From Thermoproteota archaeon (GTDB lineage: Archaea; Korarchaeota; JAOZGF01; JAOZFZ01), in contig JAOZFT010000004.1 of assembly GCA_027492035.1 (NCBI GenBank), positions 32,001 through 96,000 of the forward strand: 64,000 nt of DNA, written 5' to 3'. The notes below the pieces were generated by a model that searched no databases, was not told the DNA's origin, and saw only the letters and a program-made list of their open reading frames with translations. Positions 50,052 through 62,192 of the stretch are shown here, in pieces. The position numbers and the translations under genes were made by a program. Positions within the stretch are counted from its first letter, which is position 1. Every line of letters starts with the position of its first letter.

Positions 50052-51422
50052 TCATTGACGTAACCATTTCTTTTCAAGAAACCCTTTGATTTCTCTTGAA
50101 TCAAAAGGCCCAACCAGGACTTCCCAGCCGCTAACATCCTCTATTTCTCCACCTAATTTAGCTGCCCTACCTGGAATAATTATTTTCTTATGTTTAACCT
50201 TTTCTTCAATTCTGTTTTCTTTAATGAGTCTAGCTACACTGTCAGGGTTTATTTTATTCCCTGCAACTGAAGTGTTGACACTTAGCCCTCCTGTGTCAAC
50301 AACAAGCAAGTAAGTTGAAATTCCTTGAATTTTTAAGTCATTTGAAACTATGTGGTAGGTTAGAGAGTAGTTTGTAGTCATCATTACGGGAGAGTTTTCG
50401 TCAGGAGACCCTATCACGTAAAGTCCTGGTTTTATTTGTAACGGAATCCTTGGGTCGATGTAGATTGCTTGTCTTAGCAACATTAAAGGAAGAACTGCCC
50501 ATTTTACGATGTTGGAGAGGATAATTATTCCTCCATACCTTAGAAGAAAGGCTGCTGATGCCATTACCTCCCAGTAATCCTTAAAATTGCCATTATTTAC
50601 CTTGATCAAGTTTGGGAAAACCAAAGTCGGGTAACCTAGAGTTTTAATTTTCTTCTCAACAGCTCCCCTCCTAATAATTGTTAGTGAACTTATTTCATCC
50701 ATTAAGTTTTGACCAGGAGGAATTATTAATATTTCATTAACTCCGAATTGATTTAATCTGGTAATTAAGGTTTTAACTTCCTCTAGATTGCTTCCATGAA
50801 CAGCTACGGGGGTTTTAAATTTCTTTGCAAGCACAGCCATTTGATTCACGTTCATTGACGTAACTGGACATATTAAGGGTTTATCTTCACCCACAAACTC
50901 TAAAGCTTTCATTAAAGAGTAGGGAGTAGTGCTGCAAAGAATTAATGGGAGATTTGTGTGTTGTTTCACTATTTTTAAGGTTTCTACAAATTTTTCAGCG
51001 TTACCAGAAACAGACTTCACAGCAAACATGTTCAGTTTTAACGTCTGCCCCATTCTCTCAATTCTAAATTCTTCAGCTTCCTTTATTTTTTCAATTATTT
51101 CCTCGCTAGACATTCTGTCACTTATTTCTACTGCGAACAAAGCTTCATTGTAGAATTTCTCTTCATGTCTAAACGCAACTTTCTCTCCCCCTATAACTAC
51201 TTTGTTTCTTCCAGTACCTATCTCAACTTTTACAACTGGGGGAGCAGTTTTTGTTAAAAGTGCATCCTTAGCTTCCTCGCTTAAGTAGGGGCATTGTGAA
51301 GGGTTTGCCTTCCCTTCAACTATTTTGAAAGCGAACGCCATACAAGTAGGTACCCCGCATTCTCCACAGTTCTTTTTGGGAAGAAGTTTATAGATGTCGG
51401 TAGGACTTATTTTTTTAGCCAT
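50052..51422 (-). CDS. cdhE: corrinoid Fe-S protein large (gamma) subunit, second divergent paralog
   Basis: IYKLLPKKNCGECGVPTCMAFA..CP, GGEKVAFRHE, RQAIYIDPR.P, TTNYSLTY, DTGGLSV, IIIPG, W.VLVGP; start at ATG 51422. Confidence 0.9.
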   Translation of the reverse strand: MAKKISPTDIYKLLPKKNCGECGVPTCMAFAFKIVEGKANPSQCPYLSEEAKDALLTKTAPPVVKVEIGTGRNKVVIGGEKVAFRHEEKFYNEALFAVEISDRMSSEEIIEKIKEAEEFRIERMGQTLKLNMFAVKSVSGNAEKFVETLKIVKQHTNLPLILCSTTPYSLMKALEFVGEDKPLICPVTSMNVNQMAVLAKKFKTPVAVHGSNLEEVKTLITRLNQFGVNEILIIPPGQNLMDEISSLTIIRRGAVEKKIKTLGYPTLVFPNLIKVNNGNFKDYWEVMASAAFLLRYGGIIILSNIVKWAVLPLMLLRQAIYIDPRIPLQIKPGLYVIGSPDENSPVMMTTNYSLTYHIVSNDLKIQGISTYLLVVDTGGLSVNTSVAGNKINPDSVARLIKENRIEEKVKHKKIIIPGRAAKLGGEIEDVSGWEVLVGPFDSREIKGFLEKKWLRQ

Positions 51423-51433
51423 ATTTGCCGCCT

Positions 51434-52456
51434 TTACCTGGTTTTTAACCACTCCTCCACAGTTATAAACTGCTTAGGTTCATTGAAGAAATTATTAACG
51501 AATTCATTTATCAGCTTCGCTGCTTCAGGGTGTAGGGATGAAGATATGTTTGCTCCAGCCATTATCCCAGTTATTGCCGTTAAAACTTCGAAAGTTATTC
51601 CTGTTTTTTCTGTTTCGAGTTTATCTTCTTCCTGAAGTTCCCTTGCAAGCCAGCTTTCACTTGAAAAAATAATGCTTGGACTTTGAAGGATTTTGTCTCC
51701 TCTAAGGGCCCTTATTTTTACTCTTTCAAGCGTTGAAAAAGTATATTCGATGCCGTAACCTAAAGCCCCCGTGGTCACATCCATAATTATTTCTTTATTT
51801 GTTAATCCAAGGTTTAAGAGGGAGGTATTAAGTTTAAGTGCTTGGTTTACATCCATGTTTGTTTTTGCAAGTACAGGGTGTTTCTTTTCCAGACAAGCCT
51901 TACCTATTTCTTGGAAAGCATTAGTGTACACAGGCCCTATTAAACATTTTTCTCCTTCACATATTTCAGCTGATTTCGTCAATATTTCATTGTTTTTCCT
52001 GTAATCATCCATTTCAATGATGTCCATTACCCCTGTAATTAGGAGGGGGACCTTAACTGCTTGAAGAACTTCCTCAATAACGTTACTTATCTCTTTTTTG
52101 AAAGTTTCATTCCTTATAGAGAAGGCATCTGTCAATCTTAAGTTAACCATTTCTGCTTTAAATTTATTAACAGCTTCTCTACTCCATTCAACAGGGTTAT
52201 CTACCAAGTCACCGAAGAAATTAAACAGGGAACCGGGTAAAGGAGCATGGTAACAATACACTTCGTGAGCTATTCTTGGGGGGTTAGGGTTGATCCCTTC
52301 AAAACTGTAGAGAGGTAAGTATTTGTCTCCCCCTACAGTTACTGAGTAACTTCTAGTTCCCCCTTCAGTTTTTGTGGCCCCAATCTCAACTTCTTTAATT
52401 TCGCCCTCATATTTTTCGAAAGAAATGGGAATACTTGACATTTCAGTTTTCACCAA
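51434..52456 (-). CDS. cdhD: corrinoid Fe-S protein small (delta) subunit, second divergent paralog lacking the N-terminal extension
   Basis: EVEIGATKTEGGTR...VGG, EEVLQAVKVPL, MDVNQA, MDVTTGALGYGIEY, RAL.GD..LQ.P, W.ARE, HP.A. Confidence 0.85.
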   Translation of the reverse strand: MVKTEMSSIPISFEKYEGEIKEVEIGATKTEGGTRSYSVTVGGDKYLPLYSFEGINPNPPRIAHEVYCYHAPLPGSLFNFFGDLVDNPVEWSREAVNKFKAEMVNLRLTDAFSIRNETFKKEISNVIEEVLQAVKVPLLITGVMDIIEMDDYRKNNEILTKSAEICEGEKCLIGPVYTNAFQEIGKACLEKKHPVLAKTNMDVNQALKLNTSLLNLGLTNKEIIMDVTTGALGYGIEYTFSTLERVKIRALRGDKILQSPSIIFSSESWLARELQEEDKLETEKTGITFEVLTAITGIMAGANISSSLHPEAAKLINEFVNNFFNEPKQFITVEEWLKTR

Positions 52457-52633: not shown

Positions 52634-54028
52634 TTACTTCCATTTTTCTTGCATAAATTTAGGTATTCCTGAGGAATCTAATGGCCCTACAAGCACTTTC
52701 CAACCGCTTTTTTCCTCTATTTCTCCACTTAACCTTGAAGCTCTGCCAGGGATCACTATTTTTCTATGTTTCACTTTTTCTTCAATTTTGCTTTCCTTAA
52801 TTGAATCTGCGACTCTGTCAGCAGTTAATTTCCTTCCTGCAACAGCTGAATCAACAGATAACCCTTCTGTATCAACAACTAAGAGGTAGCAATCCAGTTT
52901 AGCTGACTGTATATCTGCAGCAACTGTGTAATAGGTTAAAGCGAAGTTGGTAGTGAATAATACAGGTGAGTTTTCGTTAGGTTGTCCAAACGTCCTTATT
53001 CCTGGTTCAACAGCCACAGGTTTCCTTGGGTCTGTATATATGTTTTCTCTTAGGATAATTTGAGGCAGAAGACTCCAACCTTCCAAGTTATGAACTATTA
53101 ATGCATCTGCAAACCTCACTATCAACATACCGGCTAAATATGTTTCCTCCCATTTCTTATCCAGTATACGTCCTTCTTGAGTCCAAGCAGTTATGGGAGT
53201 GCCTATTAACGGGAAACTAAGTAATTCATCATTTTCCTTAAAAGCTGCTCTACGGATCATTGTGAAATTGTTCAGGGTTGCTGAGACTCCATCGCCTGGA
53301 AAAGTACCTGGATCTAGAACTAAATCTTCGATTCCGTACTCTTTCATAGTTTTCACCAATGACTTAAGCAATGTTATATCGTTAGGTGCAAAAATTGTTA
53401 AGGGGCAATTATACATTGAAGCTAGTTCACCCATTTTGTCCCAGTTATCTTTTGTAGCTGCGTAAATAAGAGGCTTGCTGTTTTTAGCTTCTGACAAACC
53501 TGACTTCATGACTTTAGGGTTGAAGGTGCAAAGGATCATTGGTAAACTTGTGTTTTCAACAACTGTTTTAACTGTTTCCCCGAATTTTTCAGGATCTTCT
53601 GTTACTGACCTCACAGCCACCAAGTTTAGCTTTAATTCTTTGCCTATGTAGCTATAGGAGAAGTTTTCAATTTTCTTAACCCTCTCAATTAATTCGTCTT
53701 TAGGCAGGTCATCTGTAACATCTACAGCTATAGCTGTTGGGTTTATGTAAGTTAATTCATGTCTATACATCACATACTCTCCACCTATTTTCACTTCTTT
53801 AGTTGGGCTTTTAATTACTACCTCTTTCAGAGTAGGCTTTATTAAATCCCAAATTTTTTCTCGGTTTCTTCTGTATTTACTTGTTAAAAGAGGTTTACAG
53901 GCGTCAAGTCCAATTTCCATTGCAACAAGTTTAGTTGCAAAAGCCATACAGTTTTCTAGGCCACATTCTTTACAGTTAGTTTTGGGAAGGAGTTTATAGA
54001 TGTCTAGTGGACTTAATTCTTTAGCCAA
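52634..54028 (-). CDS. cdhE: ACDS complex gamma subunit (corrinoid Fe-S protein large subunit)
   Basis: LPKTNCKECGLENCMAFA, GGEYVMYRHE, VLDPGT, RENIYTDPRKP, TTNFALTY, VGPLDSSGIP. Confidence 0.95.
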   Translation of the reverse strand: MAKELSPLDIYKLLPKTNCKECGLENCMAFATKLVAMEIGLDACKPLLTSKYRRNREKIWDLIKPTLKEVVIKSPTKEVKIGGEYVMYRHELTYINPTAIAVDVTDDLPKDELIERVKKIENFSYSYIGKELKLNLVAVRSVTEDPEKFGETVKTVVENTSLPMILCTFNPKVMKSGLSEAKNSKPLIYAATKDNWDKMGELASMYNCPLTIFAPNDITLLKSLVKTMKEYGIEDLVLDPGTFPGDGVSATLNNFTMIRRAAFKENDELLSFPLIGTPITAWTQEGRILDKKWEETYLAGMLIVRFADALIVHNLEGWSLLPQIILRENIYTDPRKPVAVEPGIRTFGQPNENSPVLFTTNFALTYYTVAADIQSAKLDCYLLVVDTEGLSVDSAVAGRKLTADRVADSIKESKIEEKVKHRKIVIPGRASRLSGEIEEKSGWKVLVGPLDSSGIPKFMQEKWK

Positions 54029-54043
54029 GTTGCGTCACCTTTT

Positions 54044-55234
54044 TCAGAATTTTTTAGTAACCCAGTTAATAACTTCCTGAGGTTTTACAGGCTTTTGCTC
54101 CACCAGCCTCTGAATTACCGACTTCACTGTTTCAACTGCTTTGGGATGCATCATCATGAATAAGTCAACTCCAGCTAAAAGCAGAGTTAATGCAGTAACC
54201 ACTTCCCATATTGGTCCTCTTAGCTCCCTAGGTTCCCATTCTGGTCCTAGTTTTATCCATGCTTCTCTAGCAGCCCAAGCATTGGTTGTGCCTGAGGATA
54301 ATGGGTGCTGCAGCTCCTCGTCGCCCATTAACGCAGCAAGCCTCGTCCTTTCCATTATAGTGAATGCATAATCTAAACCATAACCTAAAGCTGCAGTGGT
54401 TGTATCCATTATTATGTTTTCTTTGGGTAAGTACTCGTAGAGTTTACGGTCAAGTTCTTTCTGCTGCTGCATATCCATTGAAGTAAAGGCAATTACGACA
54501 TGGCCGTGCTCCTTAATAGCTTTGGCGGCTTTTTCCAGATCCATGTCCAAGGTAACTGAGTTGATAAGTATTCTTTCTCCTTCAGCAGCCTCAGCCACTT
54601 TCTCAAAAACCTGTAAATCCTTTACAGGGTCTCCGCAACCCCCTACTGTCAAGGGTACTTTAACTGCTTGAAGAACTTCCTCCACTGTTTTCGCAGCCTC
54701 ACTTGGAGAAGTGTTTTCACGTAAGGGGTCTATGCTTTCCATGTGAAGGTTTATCATTTCAGCACCGAATTTGTTGACTGCCTTTTTAGCCCATTCTGCA
54801 GGATCATCTAACACATCTCTCCAATTATTTTTCACTGCTTTAGCCATGGGTATCTTGGTGTCGAAAACATCCAGTGAAACAACAGGGGGGTGGGGAGTAG
54901 GTGATTCAAAAGTGTAAAATGCAGGAGAAGTTTCTCCTCCCACCACTACGGTTTTATCCCTAGTACCTCCTTCCTTTTTAGTGGCTCCGATTTTTACTTC
55001 AACAACTCTTCCAGGGTAAATTTGAATAGGGGGGGTGAATTCAGTCTTTAAAATTTCAGTTGGTTTTTTGATTTGTGGAACAGCGGCAGGGTAGGGAATA
55101 AACCTTTGAGGCACTGGTTCAAACTCCAACTCTGAAAATTCAGCTTCAATGTTTTCTAGGATCATTTCAGAATTGTTTAATTTTTTAATTAGGTCAAGTA
55201 TGGAGTTGAAGAAAGAATTAGCTTCCTCGCTCAA
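54044..55234 (-). CDS. cdhD: ACDS complex delta subunit
   Basis: GATKKEGGTR, EEVLQAVKVPL, MDTTTAALGYGLDY, TNAWAAREAW, RGPIWE, FMMMHP. Confidence 0.95.
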   Translation of the reverse strand: MSEEANSFFNSILDLIKKLNNSEMILENIEAEFSELEFEPVPQRFIPYPAAVPQIKKPTEILKTEFTPPIQIYPGRVVEVKIGATKKEGGTRDKTVVVGGETSPAFYTFESPTPHPPVVSLDVFDTKIPMAKAVKNNWRDVLDDPAEWAKKAVNKFGAEMINLHMESIDPLRENTSPSEAAKTVEEVLQAVKVPLTVGGCGDPVKDLQVFEKVAEAAEGERILINSVTLDMDLEKAAKAIKEHGHVVIAFTSMDMQQQKELDRKLYEYLPKENIIMDTTTAALGYGLDYAFTIMERTRLAALMGDEELQHPLSSGTTNAWAAREAWIKLGPEWEPRELRGPIWEVVTALTLLLAGVDLFMMMHPKAVETVKSVIQRLVEQKPVKPQEVINWVTKKF

Positions 55235-55240
55235 TTAAGT

Positions 55241-55465
55241 CTACCTCTTTTCCTCTTTAGTTTTATGCAAAGTTAGTTTTTCAATACTGAGTTTAACCCC
55301 CTTAATTTTTTGAACTGATCCTTTAGAGGAGGGCTTGATGTGCATTTCATCAAAAGTTAAGTTTATGTTTTCAAGAATGGTTTCTGATTTCTCTATCTCT
55401 TCAATTAATTCTACAACTGTTTTAAGTAAAGGTTTTGGTTCCCTTCTTTCACTCAAGTTTTTCAC
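55241..55465 (-). CDS. 74-aa protein composed of CdhD-N-terminus-like and CdhC-C-terminus-like modules
   Basis: Tightly packed between cdhC (2 nt gap) and cdhD (6 nt gap); visible internal similarity to both neighbours (see findings). Confidence 0.75.
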   Translation of the reverse strand: MKNLSERREPKPLLKTVVELIEEIEKSETILENINLTFDEMHIKPSSKGSVQKIKGVKLSIEKLTLHKTKEEKR

Positions 55466-55467
55466 CT

Positions 55468-56883
55468 TTATCTCCTTTTCCTTTTCTTTTCTACTTTTTT
55501 AAGAAGCAATTTCTCGATGTTGATTTTTGCACCTTTAATGCTGATTTTAAAGTTTCCAATTGGTAGCGGTAAAGGCATTCCTTGGACAGGTACTCCAGCT
55601 GCAGGTACTGCTTCGATTTCTTCTTCTTCCTCTTCAGCTATAGCTTCTTCTTCCAATCCCATTTCTTTCCACCTTTCAACAACCGGGTGATTGACTTTTT
55701 CCAGGAACTCTTTTAATTCATCTATGTTCTGCACATCTTTCTCTGTAGCTATTTTATCAACTACATCTTTTGGGATGAAATCTTTTACTCTTTCTTTAAA
55801 GTCTGTAGGCATCCAAACAACTCTGTGCCATCCTCCATCAACCTGCAAAAATTTGGGGGATCTTGTGTATTCTATGGAAATGCCGTGGAAACCGTCTACT
55901 TGTCTACCTCCAGCTGTTGCATCCGCCATTGTCCCAAACCTTAAACCATTGACAGCGTTACCTTTGAAGTCCCTGTGAATTAGACCCATACCGTCCACTT
56001 CAGGGATATAGAAAGCTATGCCTTCAAAACATCCACAGGATGTGTGGGGGTATCCAAAAGCAGTGTAAAGCCATACTCTTTCAATAGCACCCAAGGACTT
56101 CTCCTTTGCAGCTTTATTGGCTCCAGTGTACTCTCCCTTCCAAGGATCTAAACATTCACCTTTAGGAATTGCGAAAATTGGTCCCTTTGGGTCTATTTTT
56201 GCAGCAGCACGTCCATCATACCAACTTATTGCTCCACAATTGGAATAACGTTGGGGAGTGATTATGCAGACATGGGTAGGAGCAAAGGATTGGCAGAGGA
56301 GGCAACCGTAGAATTCATCCACTTCTTCATCCTTTAACCCTCTAGCTTTAGCGTCTCTGGCTTCATAGACTTTCAATGCCATATTGTATTGTTCCTCTAC
56401 CTTTTTTGGGTCGGTTAAGAAAGTTACTTGTATTTTTTCAATTATGGGTAATTCTGACTTATATAATCTGATCATAACTTTCCCTACAAGTTCAAAAGTG
56501 TTTAATCCTTTTTTGAAAGAGTTTTTACTTACTCTGCACCAGATGTCGTATCTCTGGTTTAAGTGCATGAATCCCTCTATGTAATTTGTGAATTCATGTA
56601 TTCTTCTTTCAATGACGCCTTCTAGATCCTCTTCCAGTTCCTTTCCTGCCACTTCCACAAGAATACCGAACGGATACGTTTTTCCCTCTTCTAAATCTTT
56701 CAAGTCAGGCCCTACAATGCTTATTTTACCATCCTCAACTTCTCCTGGTTTCTTCACTCTTACGAGTTCAAACTTTGTTTTTACCTTCGGCCCCCCTAGT
56801 TCAACATACATTTCGTTTTTTCTTATTCTTTCCCCTTCATAAACTATTCCTACGTCAACAGGAATGTCTTGAAACATGGACAT
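55468..56883 (-). CDS. cdhC: acetyl-CoA synthase, ACDS beta subunit
   Basis: YEGERIRK, EGVIERRIH, CLLCQSFAPTHVC, CGAISW, HTSCGCFE A-cluster ligands; acidic linker and basic C-terminal module. Confidence 0.96.
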   Translation of the reverse strand: MSMFQDIPVDVGIVYEGERIRKNEMYVELGGPKVKTKFELVRVKKPGEVEDGKISIVGPDLKDLEEGKTYPFGILVEVAGKELEEDLEGVIERRIHEFTNYIEGFMHLNQRYDIWCRVSKNSFKKGLNTFELVGKVMIRLYKSELPIIEKIQVTFLTDPKKVEEQYNMALKVYEARDAKARGLKDEEVDEFYGCLLCQSFAPTHVCIITPQRYSNCGAISWYDGRAAAKIDPKGPIFAIPKGECLDPWKGEYTGANKAAKEKSLGAIERVWLYTAFGYPHTSCGCFEGIAFYIPEVDGMGLIHRDFKGNAVNGLRFGTMADATAGGRQVDGFHGISIEYTRSPKFLQVDGGWHRVVWMPTDFKERVKDFIPKDVVDKIATEKDVQNIDELKEFLEKVNHPVVERWKEMGLEEEAIAEEEEEEIEAVPAAGVPVQGMPLPLPIGNFKISIKGAKINIEKLLLKKVEKKRKRR

Positions 56884-57563: not shown

Positions 57564-59909
57564 TTGTCAAAAAAGGACTTAAGAGTGAAAATAGGAGAAG
57601 TTAAAACAGAAAAAGGCACAATGAAAGATTTAGAAATTTCAATTGGGAGAATATTTGAGGAGGAGTGGGAGGAACCGGTTGGCCCAACCCCCTTTCCATC
57701 AATCAAGGACTTAAGGAACTGGGACTTCAAACTCTTAAAACGTTACAAACCATTTTACATGCCTTTCTGCGATTTATGCTGTTTTTGCACCTACGGAAAA
57801 TGTGACTTGACAAAAAATAAAAGGGGAGCTTGTGGAATCGACATGGCTGGCCAACAAGCCAGGATTGTTCTGTTAGCCTGTGCAATAGGTGCAGCTACAC
57901 ATTGTGGACATGCCAGACATTTAGTAGAACACTTGATTGAGGAATATGGAAGAGATACACCTCTATCAATGGGTGAAAACGTTGAGATAGAGGCTCCACA
58001 CGTAAGGCTTGTTTGTGGAATAAGGCCAAGGAAAATAAAAGATTTAGAAATAGCACTTGATTACGTGGAAAATCAAGTAACCCATTTGCTTTCTGCCATA
58101 CATACTGGCCAAGAAGGGCACTGGATGGATTTTGAATCAAAAGTTTTCCATGCAGGCATGATTGACCACGTCGCAATGGAGATAGCTGACATCGCCCAAA
58201 TAGCAGTTTACAACTTCCCTAAAGCCGACCCAGATGCTCCGTTGGTTGAGTTAGGTGCTGGTGTTGTAGACTCTAAGAAACCAACAATACTTGTGGTGGG
58301 GCATAACGTCCCTCCAGCCATAGCTATCGCAGATTACTTGACAAAAGAAAATCTTGTAGGCAGCGTTGAAGTTGCTGGCTTATGCTGCACTGCTATAGAT
58401 TTGACAAGGTACTCTTCATTTGCAAAAATAATTGGTCCAATGAGTTGGACTTTAAGGTTTATAAGAAGCGGATTAGCAGATGTAATAGTAGTGGATGAGC
58501 AGTGTGTAAGAACAAACTTAGTTGAAGAGGCCAAGAAAATCGGGGCGCTTTTCATTGCTACTTCTGAAAAAAACTGTCAGGGCCTGCCTAACAGAACAAA
58601 TGATCCAGCGGATCAAATCGTGGATGATTTAGTGAGTGGAAAACAACCTGGAGTTTTAATTTTTGACACTGAAAAAGTTGGGGAAGTAGCTGTTAAAGCA
58701 GCTTTAGCTGTAGCACCTAAGAGGAAGAAGAAAAGATCTCTTTTAACACCCAAAGAGATCATTGAGGGATCAAAGAAATGCATTAAATGCCAAGAATGCA
58801 TAAAGGCATGCCCAGATAATTTACCAGTGATGTATGCAGTGAATGATGCCGCTCGAGGAGATCTTTCTAAGTTAGCTGAACTTTATGAGAAATGTATCGG
58901 CTGCGCCAGATGTGAAAGTGCATGCAGCGTGAATTTGCCGCTTCACACTTACATCATTTCAGCTGCAGAGAAAAAAATGACGGAAGAAAAGTTTAAGATA
59001 AGAGCCGGAAGGGGACCTATTAGCGACATAGAAATAAGGGAAGTTGGTCAACCTATCGTTTTCGGTGAAATACCTGGAGTTGTTGCCTTTGTAGGTTGTC
59101 CAAACTACGCAAATGGTGGAAAAGAAATTCCTGAAATGGTTGATGAATTTGCAAAGAGAAGATACATAATTACTCTTTCAGGATGCGCAGCCATGACAGC
59201 TGGAATGTTCAAAGATGAAGAAGGGAAGACAGTGTATGAAAAGTATCACGGCAGATTTGACGCTGGAGGAGTTGTAAACGTGGGTTCATGTGTTTCAAAC
59301 CCACACATTTCTGGGGCGGCAATAAAGATAGCTAGAATATTCGCTAAAAGGAACATAAGAGCAAACTATGAAGAAATTGCTGACTATGTTTACAACCGTA
59401 TAGGTGCAGTTGGTGTTGCATGGGGCGCTATGTCGCAAAAAGCAGCTTCAATAGCTTCAGGTTTTTGGAGACTAGGGGTTCCAGTAATCGTTGGCCCCCA
59501 TGGTTCGAAATATAGAAGAATGCTGCTTGGAAGGAAAGACAGGGATGAGGACTGGTATGTTTGGGATGCAAGGACAGGTAAAAAAGTATATGTTGGACCT
59601 GCACCGGAACACCTGTTCTACACAGCTGAAACAAAGGAGGAAGCCATGGTTATGATAGCTAAACTTTGCATAAGACCTAACGATACAACTAAGGGGAGAG
59701 CTATAAAACTGACCCACTACATAGATCTTTACAAGAAATTTTACGGTAAGTTACCTGATGACATACATCTTTACGTCAGAACAAAAGCAGATATTCCATT
59801 AACCATGAAAGATGAAATACTCGCATATTTAGAAGCTAAAGGATGGAAAGAAAAAGCAACGCCTGACCCGACACTTCTACCTCGATTAATAAGGAAAAAG
59901 GAGGGATGA
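57564..59909 (+). CDS. cdhA: CO dehydrogenase, ACDS alpha subunit
   Basis: EPVGPTP, CDLCCFCTYGKC..GACG, C-cluster ligands GHN/GLCCT/DEQC/GCPN/SGC/GSCVSN, two extra CxxCxxCxxxC clusters, PDPT; TTTATATAA TATA box near 57468. Confidence 0.97.
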   Translation: MSKKDLRVKIGEVKTEKGTMKDLEISIGRIFEEEWEEPVGPTPFPSIKDLRNWDFKLLKRYKPFYMPFCDLCCFCTYGKCDLTKNKRGACGIDMAGQQARIVLLACAIGAATHCGHARHLVEHLIEEYGRDTPLSMGENVEIEAPHVRLVCGIRPRKIKDLEIALDYVENQVTHLLSAIHTGQEGHWMDFESKVFHAGMIDHVAMEIADIAQIAVYNFPKADPDAPLVELGAGVVDSKKPTILVVGHNVPPAIAIADYLTKENLVGSVEVAGLCCTAIDLTRYSSFAKIIGPMSWTLRFIRSGLADVIVVDEQCVRTNLVEEAKKIGALFIATSEKNCQGLPNRTNDPADQIVDDLVSGKQPGVLIFDTEKVGEVAVKAALAVAPKRKKKRSLLTPKEIIEGSKKCIKCQECIKACPDNLPVMYAVNDAARGDLSKLAELYEKCIGCARCESACSVNLPLHTYIISAAEKKMTEEKFKIRAGRGPISDIEIREVGQPIVFGEIPGVVAFVGCPNYANGGKEIPEMVDEFAKRRYIITLSGCAAMTAGMFKDEEGKTVYEKYHGRFDAGGVVNVGSCVSNPHISGAAIKIARIFAKRNIRANYEEIADYVYNRIGAVGVAWGAMSQKAASIASGFWRLGVPVIVGPHGSKYRRMLLGRKDRDEDWYVWDARTGKKVYVGPAPEHLFYTAETKEEAMVMIAKLCIRPNDTTKGRAIKLTHYIDLYKKFYGKLPDDIHLYVRTKADIPLTMKDEILAYLEAKGWKEKATPDPTLLPRLIRKKEG

Positions 59910-60436
59910 TGAAAATGAAACTCGAACCCTACCAAAAAGCTGAAATACCTGGACCGTCGAAAGCTTTCGCAATAAGCAATGCGAAACTGCTACTGGCTAA
60001 AATAAAGAAAGCGAAGAAGCCTTTAATGATTATTGGCCATAAATCTTTAGAGTTAGAAATAAATGGCAAATTACTTATAGACTACTTGGTTGAAATAGCG
60101 AAAAAATACAGGATACCAGTTATAACTTCTACTCCCACCTACCTAGAAATTAAGAGGAGGGGGTATGAAACAGTGTACCCAATGAATTTAATAGAGGCTG
60201 CCAGCATGGTTAAGGACCCTTCATGGACAGGGTTTGACGGAAAAGGAAATTACGACTTAGTTTTCATTGCAGGATTCCCTTACTATTATGAATGGTTGAC
60301 CTTGTCAGGTTTAAAACATTTCTCGTCAATTGAAACAATTAGTTTAGACCCTTACTATCAACCACATGCCTCATGGTCTTTTCCAACAATGAAGAAGGAA
60401 GAATGGGCCAAAATCATAAATGAACTGCTGGAATAA
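59906..60436 (+). CDS. cdhB: ACDS epsilon subunit
   Basis: AEIPGP, IKKAKKPL, DPSWTGFDGKGNYDL, LSGLKHF, YQPHASWSFP; ATGA overlap with cdhA. Confidence 0.94.
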   Translation: MMKMKLEPYQKAEIPGPSKAFAISNAKLLLAKIKKAKKPLMIIGHKSLELEINGKLLIDYLVEIAKKYRIPVITSTPTYLEIKRRGYETVYPMNLIEAASMVKDPSWTGFDGKGNYDLVFIAGFPYYYEWLTLSGLKHFSSIETISLDPYYQPHASWSFPTMKKEEWAKIINELLE

Positions 60437-61575: not shown

Positions 61576-61995
61576 TCAAGTCTTCTTCCCCTTTCCAAGT
61601 AATTTTTTATAAATATTGACTAATCCGGTATTTGCGGTTATTATCTCGGAAGCCCTCGAATCTAAAGCTGAAGCTAAATGCACCGCTTCTGCAGGAGTTA
61701 GTTTCTCTTGCATAACCAATTTAAGAGCCTTAAACAGTATTTCTTCATTTAACTCAATAAGTTTTAAATTCTTAAAGAAAAGAAACATTTTAGCCTTCTC
61801 TAAAGCTATATCTCTACCTATTTCTTCATTTAATTCACCAAAAAACTTTACCCAAGTTAAAACTGAAGTACAAGCCCTAATTTCTCCTTTAACGGTTTTT
61901 AGCAAATAATTCCTGTACTTCTCCGTCTTTTCATTTAGATAACCAAGTACAGGTTCCAAAAAAACTTCTGGGAAGAAATAAATCAACTCTCTCAA
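61576..61995 (-). CDS. PIN/VapC-fold protein with degenerate active site
   Basis: PIN layout (IYFFPEVFL, TSVLTW, LTPAEAVHLASAL, IITAN) with most catalytic acidic residues replaced. Confidence 0.7.
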   Translation of the reverse strand: MRELIYFFPEVFLEPVLGYLNEKTEKYRNYLLKTVKGEIRACTSVLTWVKFFGELNEEIGRDIALEKAKMFLFFKNLKLIELNEEILFKALKLVMQEKLTPAEAVHLASALDSRASEIITANTGLVNIYKKLLGKGKKT

Positions 61996-62192
61996 CCCTT
62001 TTTTCTTTTATGCAAAGGGGACGAACAAAAACTTTCAATGAATTTTTCAGGTGGAAGGAGAGGCTTCAAAACTATAGCATCCCCTTTCACTTCAAATGTT
62101 ACAACGCTTCCTTCTTTTAAACCGAAATGATCTCTTATGTCCTTAGGAATCACTATTTGACCTCTTGCACCTAACTTTCTGGTGAAGTAAAT
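61992..62192 (-). CDS. AbrB/MazE/SpoVT-family DNA-binding protein (VapB-type antitoxin); no canonical start codon
   Basis: Manual translation IYFTRKLGARGQIVIPKDIRDHFGLKEGSVVTFEVKGDAIVLKP...KG*; its TGA overlaps the TTG of the PIN gene; absent from the ORF track. Confidence 0.75.
   Translation of the reverse strand: MYFTRKLGARGQIVIPKDIRDHFGLKEGSVVTFEVKGDAIVLKPLLPPEKFIESFCSSPLHKRKKG

Follow-up and report, generated by a model that had tools for sequence, protein, structure and literature searches.

The ACDS complex of M. acetivorans is an assembly of ∼2 MDa that is built around CoFeSP (Zimmer et al., bioRxiv July 2026, PMC13370988). As described in the text of that preprint, the N-terminal region of CdhD, which is archaeal-specific and precedes the TIM-barrel domain, is situated at the core of the complex, and residues 45–68 of CdhD were assigned to a hexa- to octameric coiled coil on the basis of GFP fusions and Leu mutants. 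[quoted passage not shown] How the archaeal ACDS coheres is only beginning to be resolved, and the functions assigned to the termini of CdhC and CdhA and to the extreme CdhD N-terminus have the standing of proposals.

The words ‘small protein’, ‘accessory’ and ‘sixth’ are absent from the text of this preprint on Methanosarcina (PMC13370988). [quoted passage not shown] The cdh operons of Methanosarcina carry an accessory gene between cdhC and cdhD, which we take to encode a CooC-type nickel-insertion ATPase, an NTPase of roughly 250 aa.

MicroProteins are small proteins that derive from an interaction domain of larger proteins and modulate the complexes of the latter, and they are familiar from plant and animal transcription factors. 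To our knowledge, the known examples are eukaryotic regulators and not parts of metabolic megacomplexes. An earlier reading of the DNA described here, made from its letters and translations (the sequence-only reading), had singled out a 74-codon ORF between cdhC and cdhD as a candidate scaffold subunit of ACDS. Here, we report on the origin, conservation and possible function of this gene, which is composed of the two terminal modules of its neighbors.

Gene order at the cdhC–cdhD junction

In the window, by which we mean the whole 64,000-nucleotide stretch of DNA that was analysed, a 74-codon ORF with a GTG start (orf74; 55241..55465, minus strand) is located between cdhC and cdhD, and proteins that are 100% or 93–97% identical to its product are called in public assemblies. 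A TTG codon at 55454-55456 (minus strand) is an equally possible start and would afford a 71-aa product. A GGAG Shine-Dalgarno-like motif, as read from the sequence, precedes the GTG by 6 nt (55472..55475, minus strand) and falls within the final codons of cdhC. The latter gene (55468..56883, minus strand) encodes the 471-aa ACS beta subunit with Pfam domains PF03598 and PF19436, and its stop codon at 55468-55470 leaves a gap of 2 nt to orf74. On the other side, cdhD (54044..55234, minus strand) encodes the 396-aa small subunit of CoFeSP, in which the PF03599 domain extends from residue 79; its TTG start at 55234 is separated from orf74 by 6 nt. Both gaps agree with the values given in the sequence-only reading. 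The operon continues with cdhE (52634..54028, minus strand; PF03599 and PF04060), which encodes the CoFeSP large subunit, and cdhA and cdhB (57564..60436, plus strand; PF03063 and PF02552), which encode CODH alpha and epsilon, are situated upstream and are divergent from cdhC. The operon slot of orf74 is the same as that of the CooC-type gene of Methanosarcina, but the latter encodes an NTPase, whereas orf74 encodes 74 aa that belong to no Pfam or NCBIfam family.

Directly downstream of cdhE, a second CoFeSP-like pair is found at 50052-52456 (minus strand), consisting of a cdhD-like gene (340 aa) and a cdhE-like gene (466 aa). The second CdhD-like protein has no N-terminal extension, its Pfam domain beginning at residue 23, and so could not join a core that is based on this extension. 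A single further genome represents this family (G001), and it too carries the same extra cdhD/cdhE-like pair (locus L020). We considered orf74 as the supplier of the missing N-extension for the second CdhD paralogue (51434-52456) and rejected this idea, because G001 has the paralogue and no mini-gene, and two genomes of another genus (G020 and G023, described below) have a mini-gene and a single CdhD match. Adjoining the cdh genes, the segment 47980-50014 (plus strand) encodes a corrinoid-binding protein (PF02310 and PF02607) followed by an MtmB-family methyltransferase of 468 aa (PF05369, E 8e-93), which is uninterrupted and has no in-frame stop; the listed ORFs of the two proteins overlap by 50 nt. 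At 61576-62153 (minus strand), a 53-aa MazE/AbrB-type protein is followed by a PIN-domain protein (139 aa) with a 4-nt overlap, and the two genes look like a VapBC-like toxin–antitoxin pair.

Similarity of orf74 to CdhD and CdhC

The D-like half of orf74 (residues 13–45; 55331..55429, minus strand) is made up of an amphipathic helix and an acidic amphipathic strand, and is a diverged copy of the N-extension module of CdhD from the same genome (CdhD residues 8–40; 55115-55213, minus strand), a module that is conserved across 53 aligned segments. The C-like half (residues 54–74; 55244..55306, minus strand) is composed of a basic amphipathic strand and a Lys/Glu tail and is a second version of the C-terminal tail of CdhC, produced by copying, the basic module of which tail (CdhC residues 443–471; 55471-55557, minus strand) is conserved across 53 aligned tails. 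The last 21 residues of orf74 can be aligned with the final residues of CdhC, the alignment running to the C-terminus in both proteins, and the two segments are alike basic and amphipathic. A recount reproduced the identities noted earlier, 12/29 for the CdhD N-extension and 10/15 for the core of the CdhC tail.

Both similarities withstand statistical scrutiny. Against CdhD, BLASTP aligns 33 residues at E = 5e-6, of which 12 are identical and 21 positive; composition-corrected BLASTP misses the match of the Lys-rich tail of orf74 to CdhC (E 1.2). Smith-Waterman scores were compared with composition-preserving shuffles, 2000 for each comparison. The N-half scored 72 against whole CdhD (shuffles 29.8 ± 4.6) and the C-half scored 55 against whole CdhC (shuffles 27.5 ± 4.0), with 0/2000 shuffles reaching either value, and the crossed comparisons remained at shuffle level, their scores being reached by 1046/2000 and 1600/2000 shuffles.

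The enzymatic parts of the two neighbors are missing from orf74. It has no PF03599 match at E ≤ 0.1, and hence no TIM-barrel domain of the CdhD type, and no match to the ACS A-cluster domains (PF03598 and PF19436); a linker of 9 residues joins the two modules in place of the acidic/Pro-rich linker of CdhC. With a CdhD-type archaeal N-terminal extension module (helix and acidic strand) and a CdhC-type basic C-terminal tail, orf74 derives from the interaction modules of larger proteins in the absence of their functional domains and is encoded beside its presumed targets, as would be expected of a microProtein. Pfam and NCBIfam contain no family for orf74 or for the analogous mini-proteins described below. 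The CdhD module corresponds to profile positions ∼4–51 of the NCBIfam ACDS delta models, and the CdhC tail to the very end of the beta model, in each case as weak matches far below the cut-off.

A mixed MAFFT alignment (A2) placed the CdhC tails on the strand region of the CdhD N-extension and not on the C-half of orf74, and in one type of mini-protein (47–52 aa, see below) the second strand (‘AKK...’) resembles CdhC tails as well as the CdhD module of its carriers. The terminal modules of CdhD and CdhC may be related, or they may be convergent.

Tandem duplication of the junction

The DNA of the junction accounts for the composition of orf74. One unit (55328..55566, minus strand) spans the tail codons of cdhC, its stop, the spacer, the orf74 start and the D-like half; a second unit (55103..55327, minus strand) spans the C-like half of orf74, its stop, the spacer, the cdhD start and the N-extension. 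The two units are identical at 138/206 aligned bases (67%), with an alignment score of 62 as compared to 8.8 ± 4.6 (maximum 26) in 500 shuffles, and their likeness continues across the junction. Codons 4–6 of orf74 (TTG-AGT-GAA) mirror, in frame, the cdhD start TTG-AGC-GAG, and a purine-rich Shine-Dalgarno-like motif is present ahead of both starts. Trees of the module (47 columns) place orf74 together with the CdhD N-extension of its own genome and leave G001 outside (support 97/95 and 96/95). Since G001 contains both modules, with cdhC abutting cdhD and no ORF in between, and is excluded from this grouping, the duplication is placed in the lineage of the window, after its split from G001.

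We conclude that orf74 is the product of a tandem duplication of ∼230 bp that reached from the last part of cdhC into the first part of cdhD. This event set a copied cdhD ribosome-binding site, start and N-extension in frame with a copied basic strand and stop of cdhC. The D-then-C module order, the reverse of that in the flanking genes, had been taken as an argument against read-through; read-through is indeed not involved, but the reversal is not odd, because a tandem copy of C-tail, stop, spacer, start and D N-extension yields exactly this order.

Evidence for purifying selection

The next question is whether the duplicate has been maintained. Over the 33 ungapped codons that the D-like half shares with cdhD, the second codon position is identical in 29/33 cases and the third in 9/33, which is the chance level of 0.28 (Fisher p 1e-6), and pN is 0.36 as compared to a pS of 0.86. 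Third positions have been randomised while second positions were kept, and selection has therefore acted on residue class in each of the two copies. Purifying selection has preserved the D-like half from the duplication onwards. A decaying tandem duplicate of the junction had been named at the outset as a scenario that would refute the functional reading: the duplication is confirmed by DNA and trees, but the decay is contradicted by the codon positions of the D-like half, and orf74 is a real gene as had been claimed. For the C-like half (21 codons) the contrast between the same positions, 15/21 as compared to 10/21, is not significant (p 0.21).

These data bear on the view that orf74 is a functionless leftover, a junction duplicate that is open by chance and annotated merely for its start and stop. 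This view can draw on the narrow distribution of the gene, on the codon positions of the C-like half, on the long branch after the duplication (1.49–1.59 for orf74, as compared to 0.46–0.53 for the parental CdhD module in the same trees), and on the faster change of orf74 relative to its neighbors. A neutral copy, however, could not have third positions at chance together with second positions that are 88% identical. In neutral simulations from a proxy ancestor, in which indels were ignored, the share of runs in which the frame remained open was only 19% at 15% divergence, 7.6% at 25% and 5.3% at 33%, and independent analogues of orf74 are under purifying selection. A functionless remnant is thus unlikely.

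Substitutions among close variants give a more detailed picture of the rate. The exact gene was found in no genomes other than three near-identical ones, and only three variants, at 100%, 97% and 93% identity, are present among 5.8 billion clustered proteins. Between the window and the genome of the 93% variant, orf74 differs at 5/74 residues, CdhC at 4/471 and CdhD at 4/396. Relative to the flanking enzymes taken whole (8/867 residues) orf74 thus changes ∼7-fold faster, yet its rate is close to that of the parental terminal modules (3 changes in ∼70 residues), and 4/5 of the substitutions among the three variants fall outside both modules. An exhaustive single-sequence HMMER search of 1.84 billion representatives returned orf74 itself and, besides it, only a protein of 545 aa (E 1.7e-4), scans of genome and metagenome contigs with orf74 found no relative, and in the ESM Atlas the best scores (0.83–0.84) were to unnamed clusters only. 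The gene is rare and lineage-restricted.

Related mini-genes in other archaea

The phylum of the window is represented by 43 species genomes, 10 of which have CdhD. Among the other readable cdhC–cdhD junctions of the phylum, 6/8 are without an intervening ORF; in one further genome (G002) the contig begins inside cdhD. In the genus g7 of this phylum (G020 and G023), a 42-codon GTG gene that contains the D-module only lies between cdhC and cdhD and is preceded by an AGGTGAT-type motif. Its two species versions differ by 17 synonymous and 9 non-synonymous changes, affording a dN/dS (omega) of 0.079; the omega values of the flanking genes are 0.038 (cdhD) and 0.044 (cdhC).

We also looked beyond the phylum. 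The best 80 loci for the cdhD of the window are from Bathyarchaeia/Bathyarchaeota, except for one ‘uncultured archaeon’ and one Candidatus Acidoferrum, and in the 74 closest loci with cdhC among these best 80 no mini-gene was found between cdhC and cdhD (0/74), the two genes abutting throughout. With respect to sequence identity, the cdhD of the window reaches up to 68% to genes of Bathyarchaeia and 66% to its own family, even though its genome is assigned to a phylum that is small and separate. In one class of 17 genomes the module profile A3 matched 14 genomes, always within frames of ∼400 aa, and no mini-gene was found (0/14). In a sample of 401 Bathyarchaeia genomes the same profile matched 242, 10 of which had at least two matches among the matches listed, and in 8 of these 10 two-match genomes a separate small ORF follows cdhC, so that at least eight Bathyarchaeia genomes carry one. 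The mini-gene is accordingly not a general component of ACDS, and most operons are without one.

Several types can be distinguished among the carriers. Five of the at least eight genomes contain a 47–52-aa ‘AKK’ type, the most widespread one, with ATG starts and GGAGGT-like motifs; the closest pair of this type gives an omega of 0.19. The mini-protein of genome G065 (73 aa; 74 aa as publicly called, P0021) is closely similar to the g7 gene and continues into a truncated stretch that resembles the CdhC tail. This mini-protein (L134, 1206-1448) ends in a stretch ‘GPTYK...’ that is closer to the start of the g7 CdhC tail (L017 and L018) than to that of its own CdhC, which hints at a D+C junction duplicate as the origin of this type too and at movement of cdh operons between phyla. 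Another Bathyarchaeia mini-protein, also of 73 aa, has a different C-terminal helix, and the only CdhD module match of its genome is on another contig. In genome G089 (L145, 1456-1599; P0025) the stretch from the cdhC stop to the module contains neither ATG nor GTG nor TTG, and the public call is a protein of 39 aa with Leu as its first residue; the ORF might use a non-canonical start, might be reached by a frameshift from cdhC, or might be a dead copy.

Some apparent carriers were discarded. G101 has two contigs that each contain cdhC–cdhD, and in G173 the match is at a contig end. The single short-frame matches of G440, G295, G169, G303, G189 and G225 are likewise at contig ends, that of G438 is due to masked bases, and those of G155 and G292 come from a cdhD that is split on long contigs into 174 + 329 aa (L156, G155) and 233 + 315 aa (L157, G292); these splits are frameshifts or assembly errors. 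One additional protein (P0026, 91 aa, on a contig of 1,879 nt) has an ‘AKK’-type module behind an unrelated N-terminal part of 55 residues and may reflect a chimeric contig or a mis-called start.

A profile built from 13 mini-proteins (A6) retrieved 20 small proteins from the collection of 5.8 billion (E 9e-18 to 1e-7), all of the types described above, and the only name attached to them is ‘hypothetical protein’. orf74 matches this profile at E 9e-16 and is itself one of its members. In common with the mini-ORFs of g7 and Bathyarchaeia (P0010-P0025), it is a small ORF (39–74 aa for these proteins; 39–91 aa for the mini-set as a whole) that lies between cdhC and cdhD in the orientation of the operon, with a Shine-Dalgarno-like motif and a helix followed by an ‘ELE[DN]V’-type strand that matches the CdhD N-extension profile. 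Common descent was not found: orf74 nests with the CdhD of its own genome, the 47–52-aa type forms one clade beside the CdhD modules of its carriers (97/100), and the g7 and G065 types form another (81/95) that is separate from orf74. The tree is based on a short alignment, and many of its forks lack resolution. As far as such sequence comparison can tell, the mini-genes have three to four separate origins and are a recurrent form rather than one gene family. Most of them differ from orf74 in having the D-like module only, the C-like stretch of G065/P0021 being truncated and the ‘AKK’ type having a basic second strand, and orf74 is the only mini-protein seen with a full copy of the CdhC tail. 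Given that the analogues mostly retain the D-like module alone, the D-like half is probably the working part of orf74, and the C-like half may be less important. The synteny and selection survey that had been suggested for this ORF therefore gave a divided answer: syntenic analogues exist and are under purifying selection, but orf74 in its exact form occurs only in the three near-identical genomes.

The analogues are also informative with regard to an explanation in which translation itself matters and not the peptide, the copied ribosome-binding site and start serving to couple CdhD output to that of CdhC. The spacing (2 nt from the cdhC stop to the orf74 start, 6 nt from the orf74 stop to the cdhD start) and the copying of cdhD translation signals by the duplication are what such coupling would look like. 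Pure coupling, however, would not need selection on residue class at codon position 2 or on the amino acid sequences of the analogues (omega 0.08 and 0.19), and most operons link cdhC to cdhD directly. We regard this explanation as quite improbable.

Structure prediction and charge

The AF2 model of orf74 contains a helix (residues 12–26) and two strands (29–43 and 52–66); as these are the only strands of the model, they are predicted to form a pair. The model is of moderate quality, with a mean pLDDT of 69.5 and a pTM of 0.32, the five models ranging from 47.7 to 69.5, and the underlying alignment has 31 rows that cover mainly the N-half, with three rows in support of the C-half. This thin coverage of the C-half follows from leaving the mixed alignment A2 out of the folding. 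A D-only mini-protein was modeled as a helix (residues 16–25) and an extended, unpaired stretch (pLDDT 75.3). The earlier description of the modules as purely beta-strand does not hold, since in the AF2 model the D-like module opens with an amphipathic helix.

The charges of the two modules are opposite in sign. The CdhD module has a mean net charge of −7.6 (range −12 to −3, n = 53) and the CdhC tail one of +6.5 (range +3 to +11, n = 53); orf74 combines the two, with −5 over residues 13–45 and +6 over residues 46–74. The 47–52-aa type is likewise acidic and then basic, and the g7 type is acidic throughout. Across 53 genomes the net charges of the CdhD module and the CdhC tail do not co-vary (r −0.05). 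Complex predictions scored 0.07 for orf74 with the CdhD N-extension and 0.04 for orf74 with the CdhC tail, to be read beside a mark of 0.32 and with the controls not folded; these scores carry no weight for or against binding.

The unpaired strand of the D-only model, which would seem to need a partner, is the kind of feature expected of an assembly chaperone that transiently covers the sticky amphipathic termini of CdhC and CdhD and is absent from the mature complex. From the position of the gene, the mini-protein would also be synthesised after the CdhC tail and before the CdhD N-terminus. The majority of organisms that have these modules nevertheless do without a mini-protein, and a chaperone is in our estimate very improbable.

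Discussion

We favor the view, at a probability of roughly 0.55, that orf74 is a candidate enzyme-free hub or tether module of the ACDS core that originated as a junction duplicate. Its product is an enzyme-free copy of the two modules that are thought to hold CoFeSP (through CdhD) and ACS (through CdhC) at the core, and it would be made with the operon, joining or competing at the core. In such a scheme, the acidic D-like half could co-assemble with CdhD N-extensions and would offer additional docking to the basic CdhC tails, and the basic C-like half would be an additional ligand for the CdhD N-extensions. As a filler or adaptor, orf74 could change the number of enzyme modules that are tethered per particle.

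This hub proposal is partly in print already. In the text of the preprint on M. acetivorans the N-terminal region of CdhD oligomerises and terminal docking is proposed, in line with the sequence-only reading (PMC13370988); the roles of spacer, nucleator or cap that the latter suggested are candidate roles. Within the literature covered, a free-standing module gene is not in print. The comparison also has a structural limit: the segment analysed in M. acetivorans (residues 43–88, with the helix at 45–68), as presented in the preprint, shows no likeness by eye to the helix and strand module described here, and a hub role for the present module is therefore extrapolated.

The same anatomy would be expected if orf74 were a dominant-negative decoy, free copies of the modules titrating CdhC tails and/or CdhD N-extensions, loosening or shrinking the supercomplex and regulating it in the manner of a microProtein. 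The absence of a catalytic domain is as expected for a decoy, and the D-only analogues, being unable to bridge two partners, could only compete or co-oligomerise. The data fit a filler or adaptor equally well, however, and constitutive co-transcription together with tight spacing would be more typical of a stoichiometric partner than of a switchable regulator. A decoy is, in our view, a doubtful explanation, and we retain the hub or tether module as the preferred one.

A broader version of the hub or tether reading is that the mini-proteins in general are repeated inventions by junction duplication, enzyme-free occupants of the core that set particle size or the ratio of ACS to CoFeSP. We advance this generalization only tentatively. 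If true, the mini-genes would be natural, genetically separable probes of how a megadalton complex coheres.

What is new here is the free-standing gene form of known ACDS terminal modules, in carriers that are uncultured. orf74 is a clean case of gene birth by junction duplication and of a microprotein in an archaeal metabolic operon, and the mini-genes are ready-made constructs of 42–74 aa for work on hub assembly, stoichiometry control and tethering. On at least three or four occasions terminal modules of ACDS have become genes of their own that purifying selection has maintained, and this recurrence, as judged from sequence comparison, argues that the modules may act on their own as interaction units.
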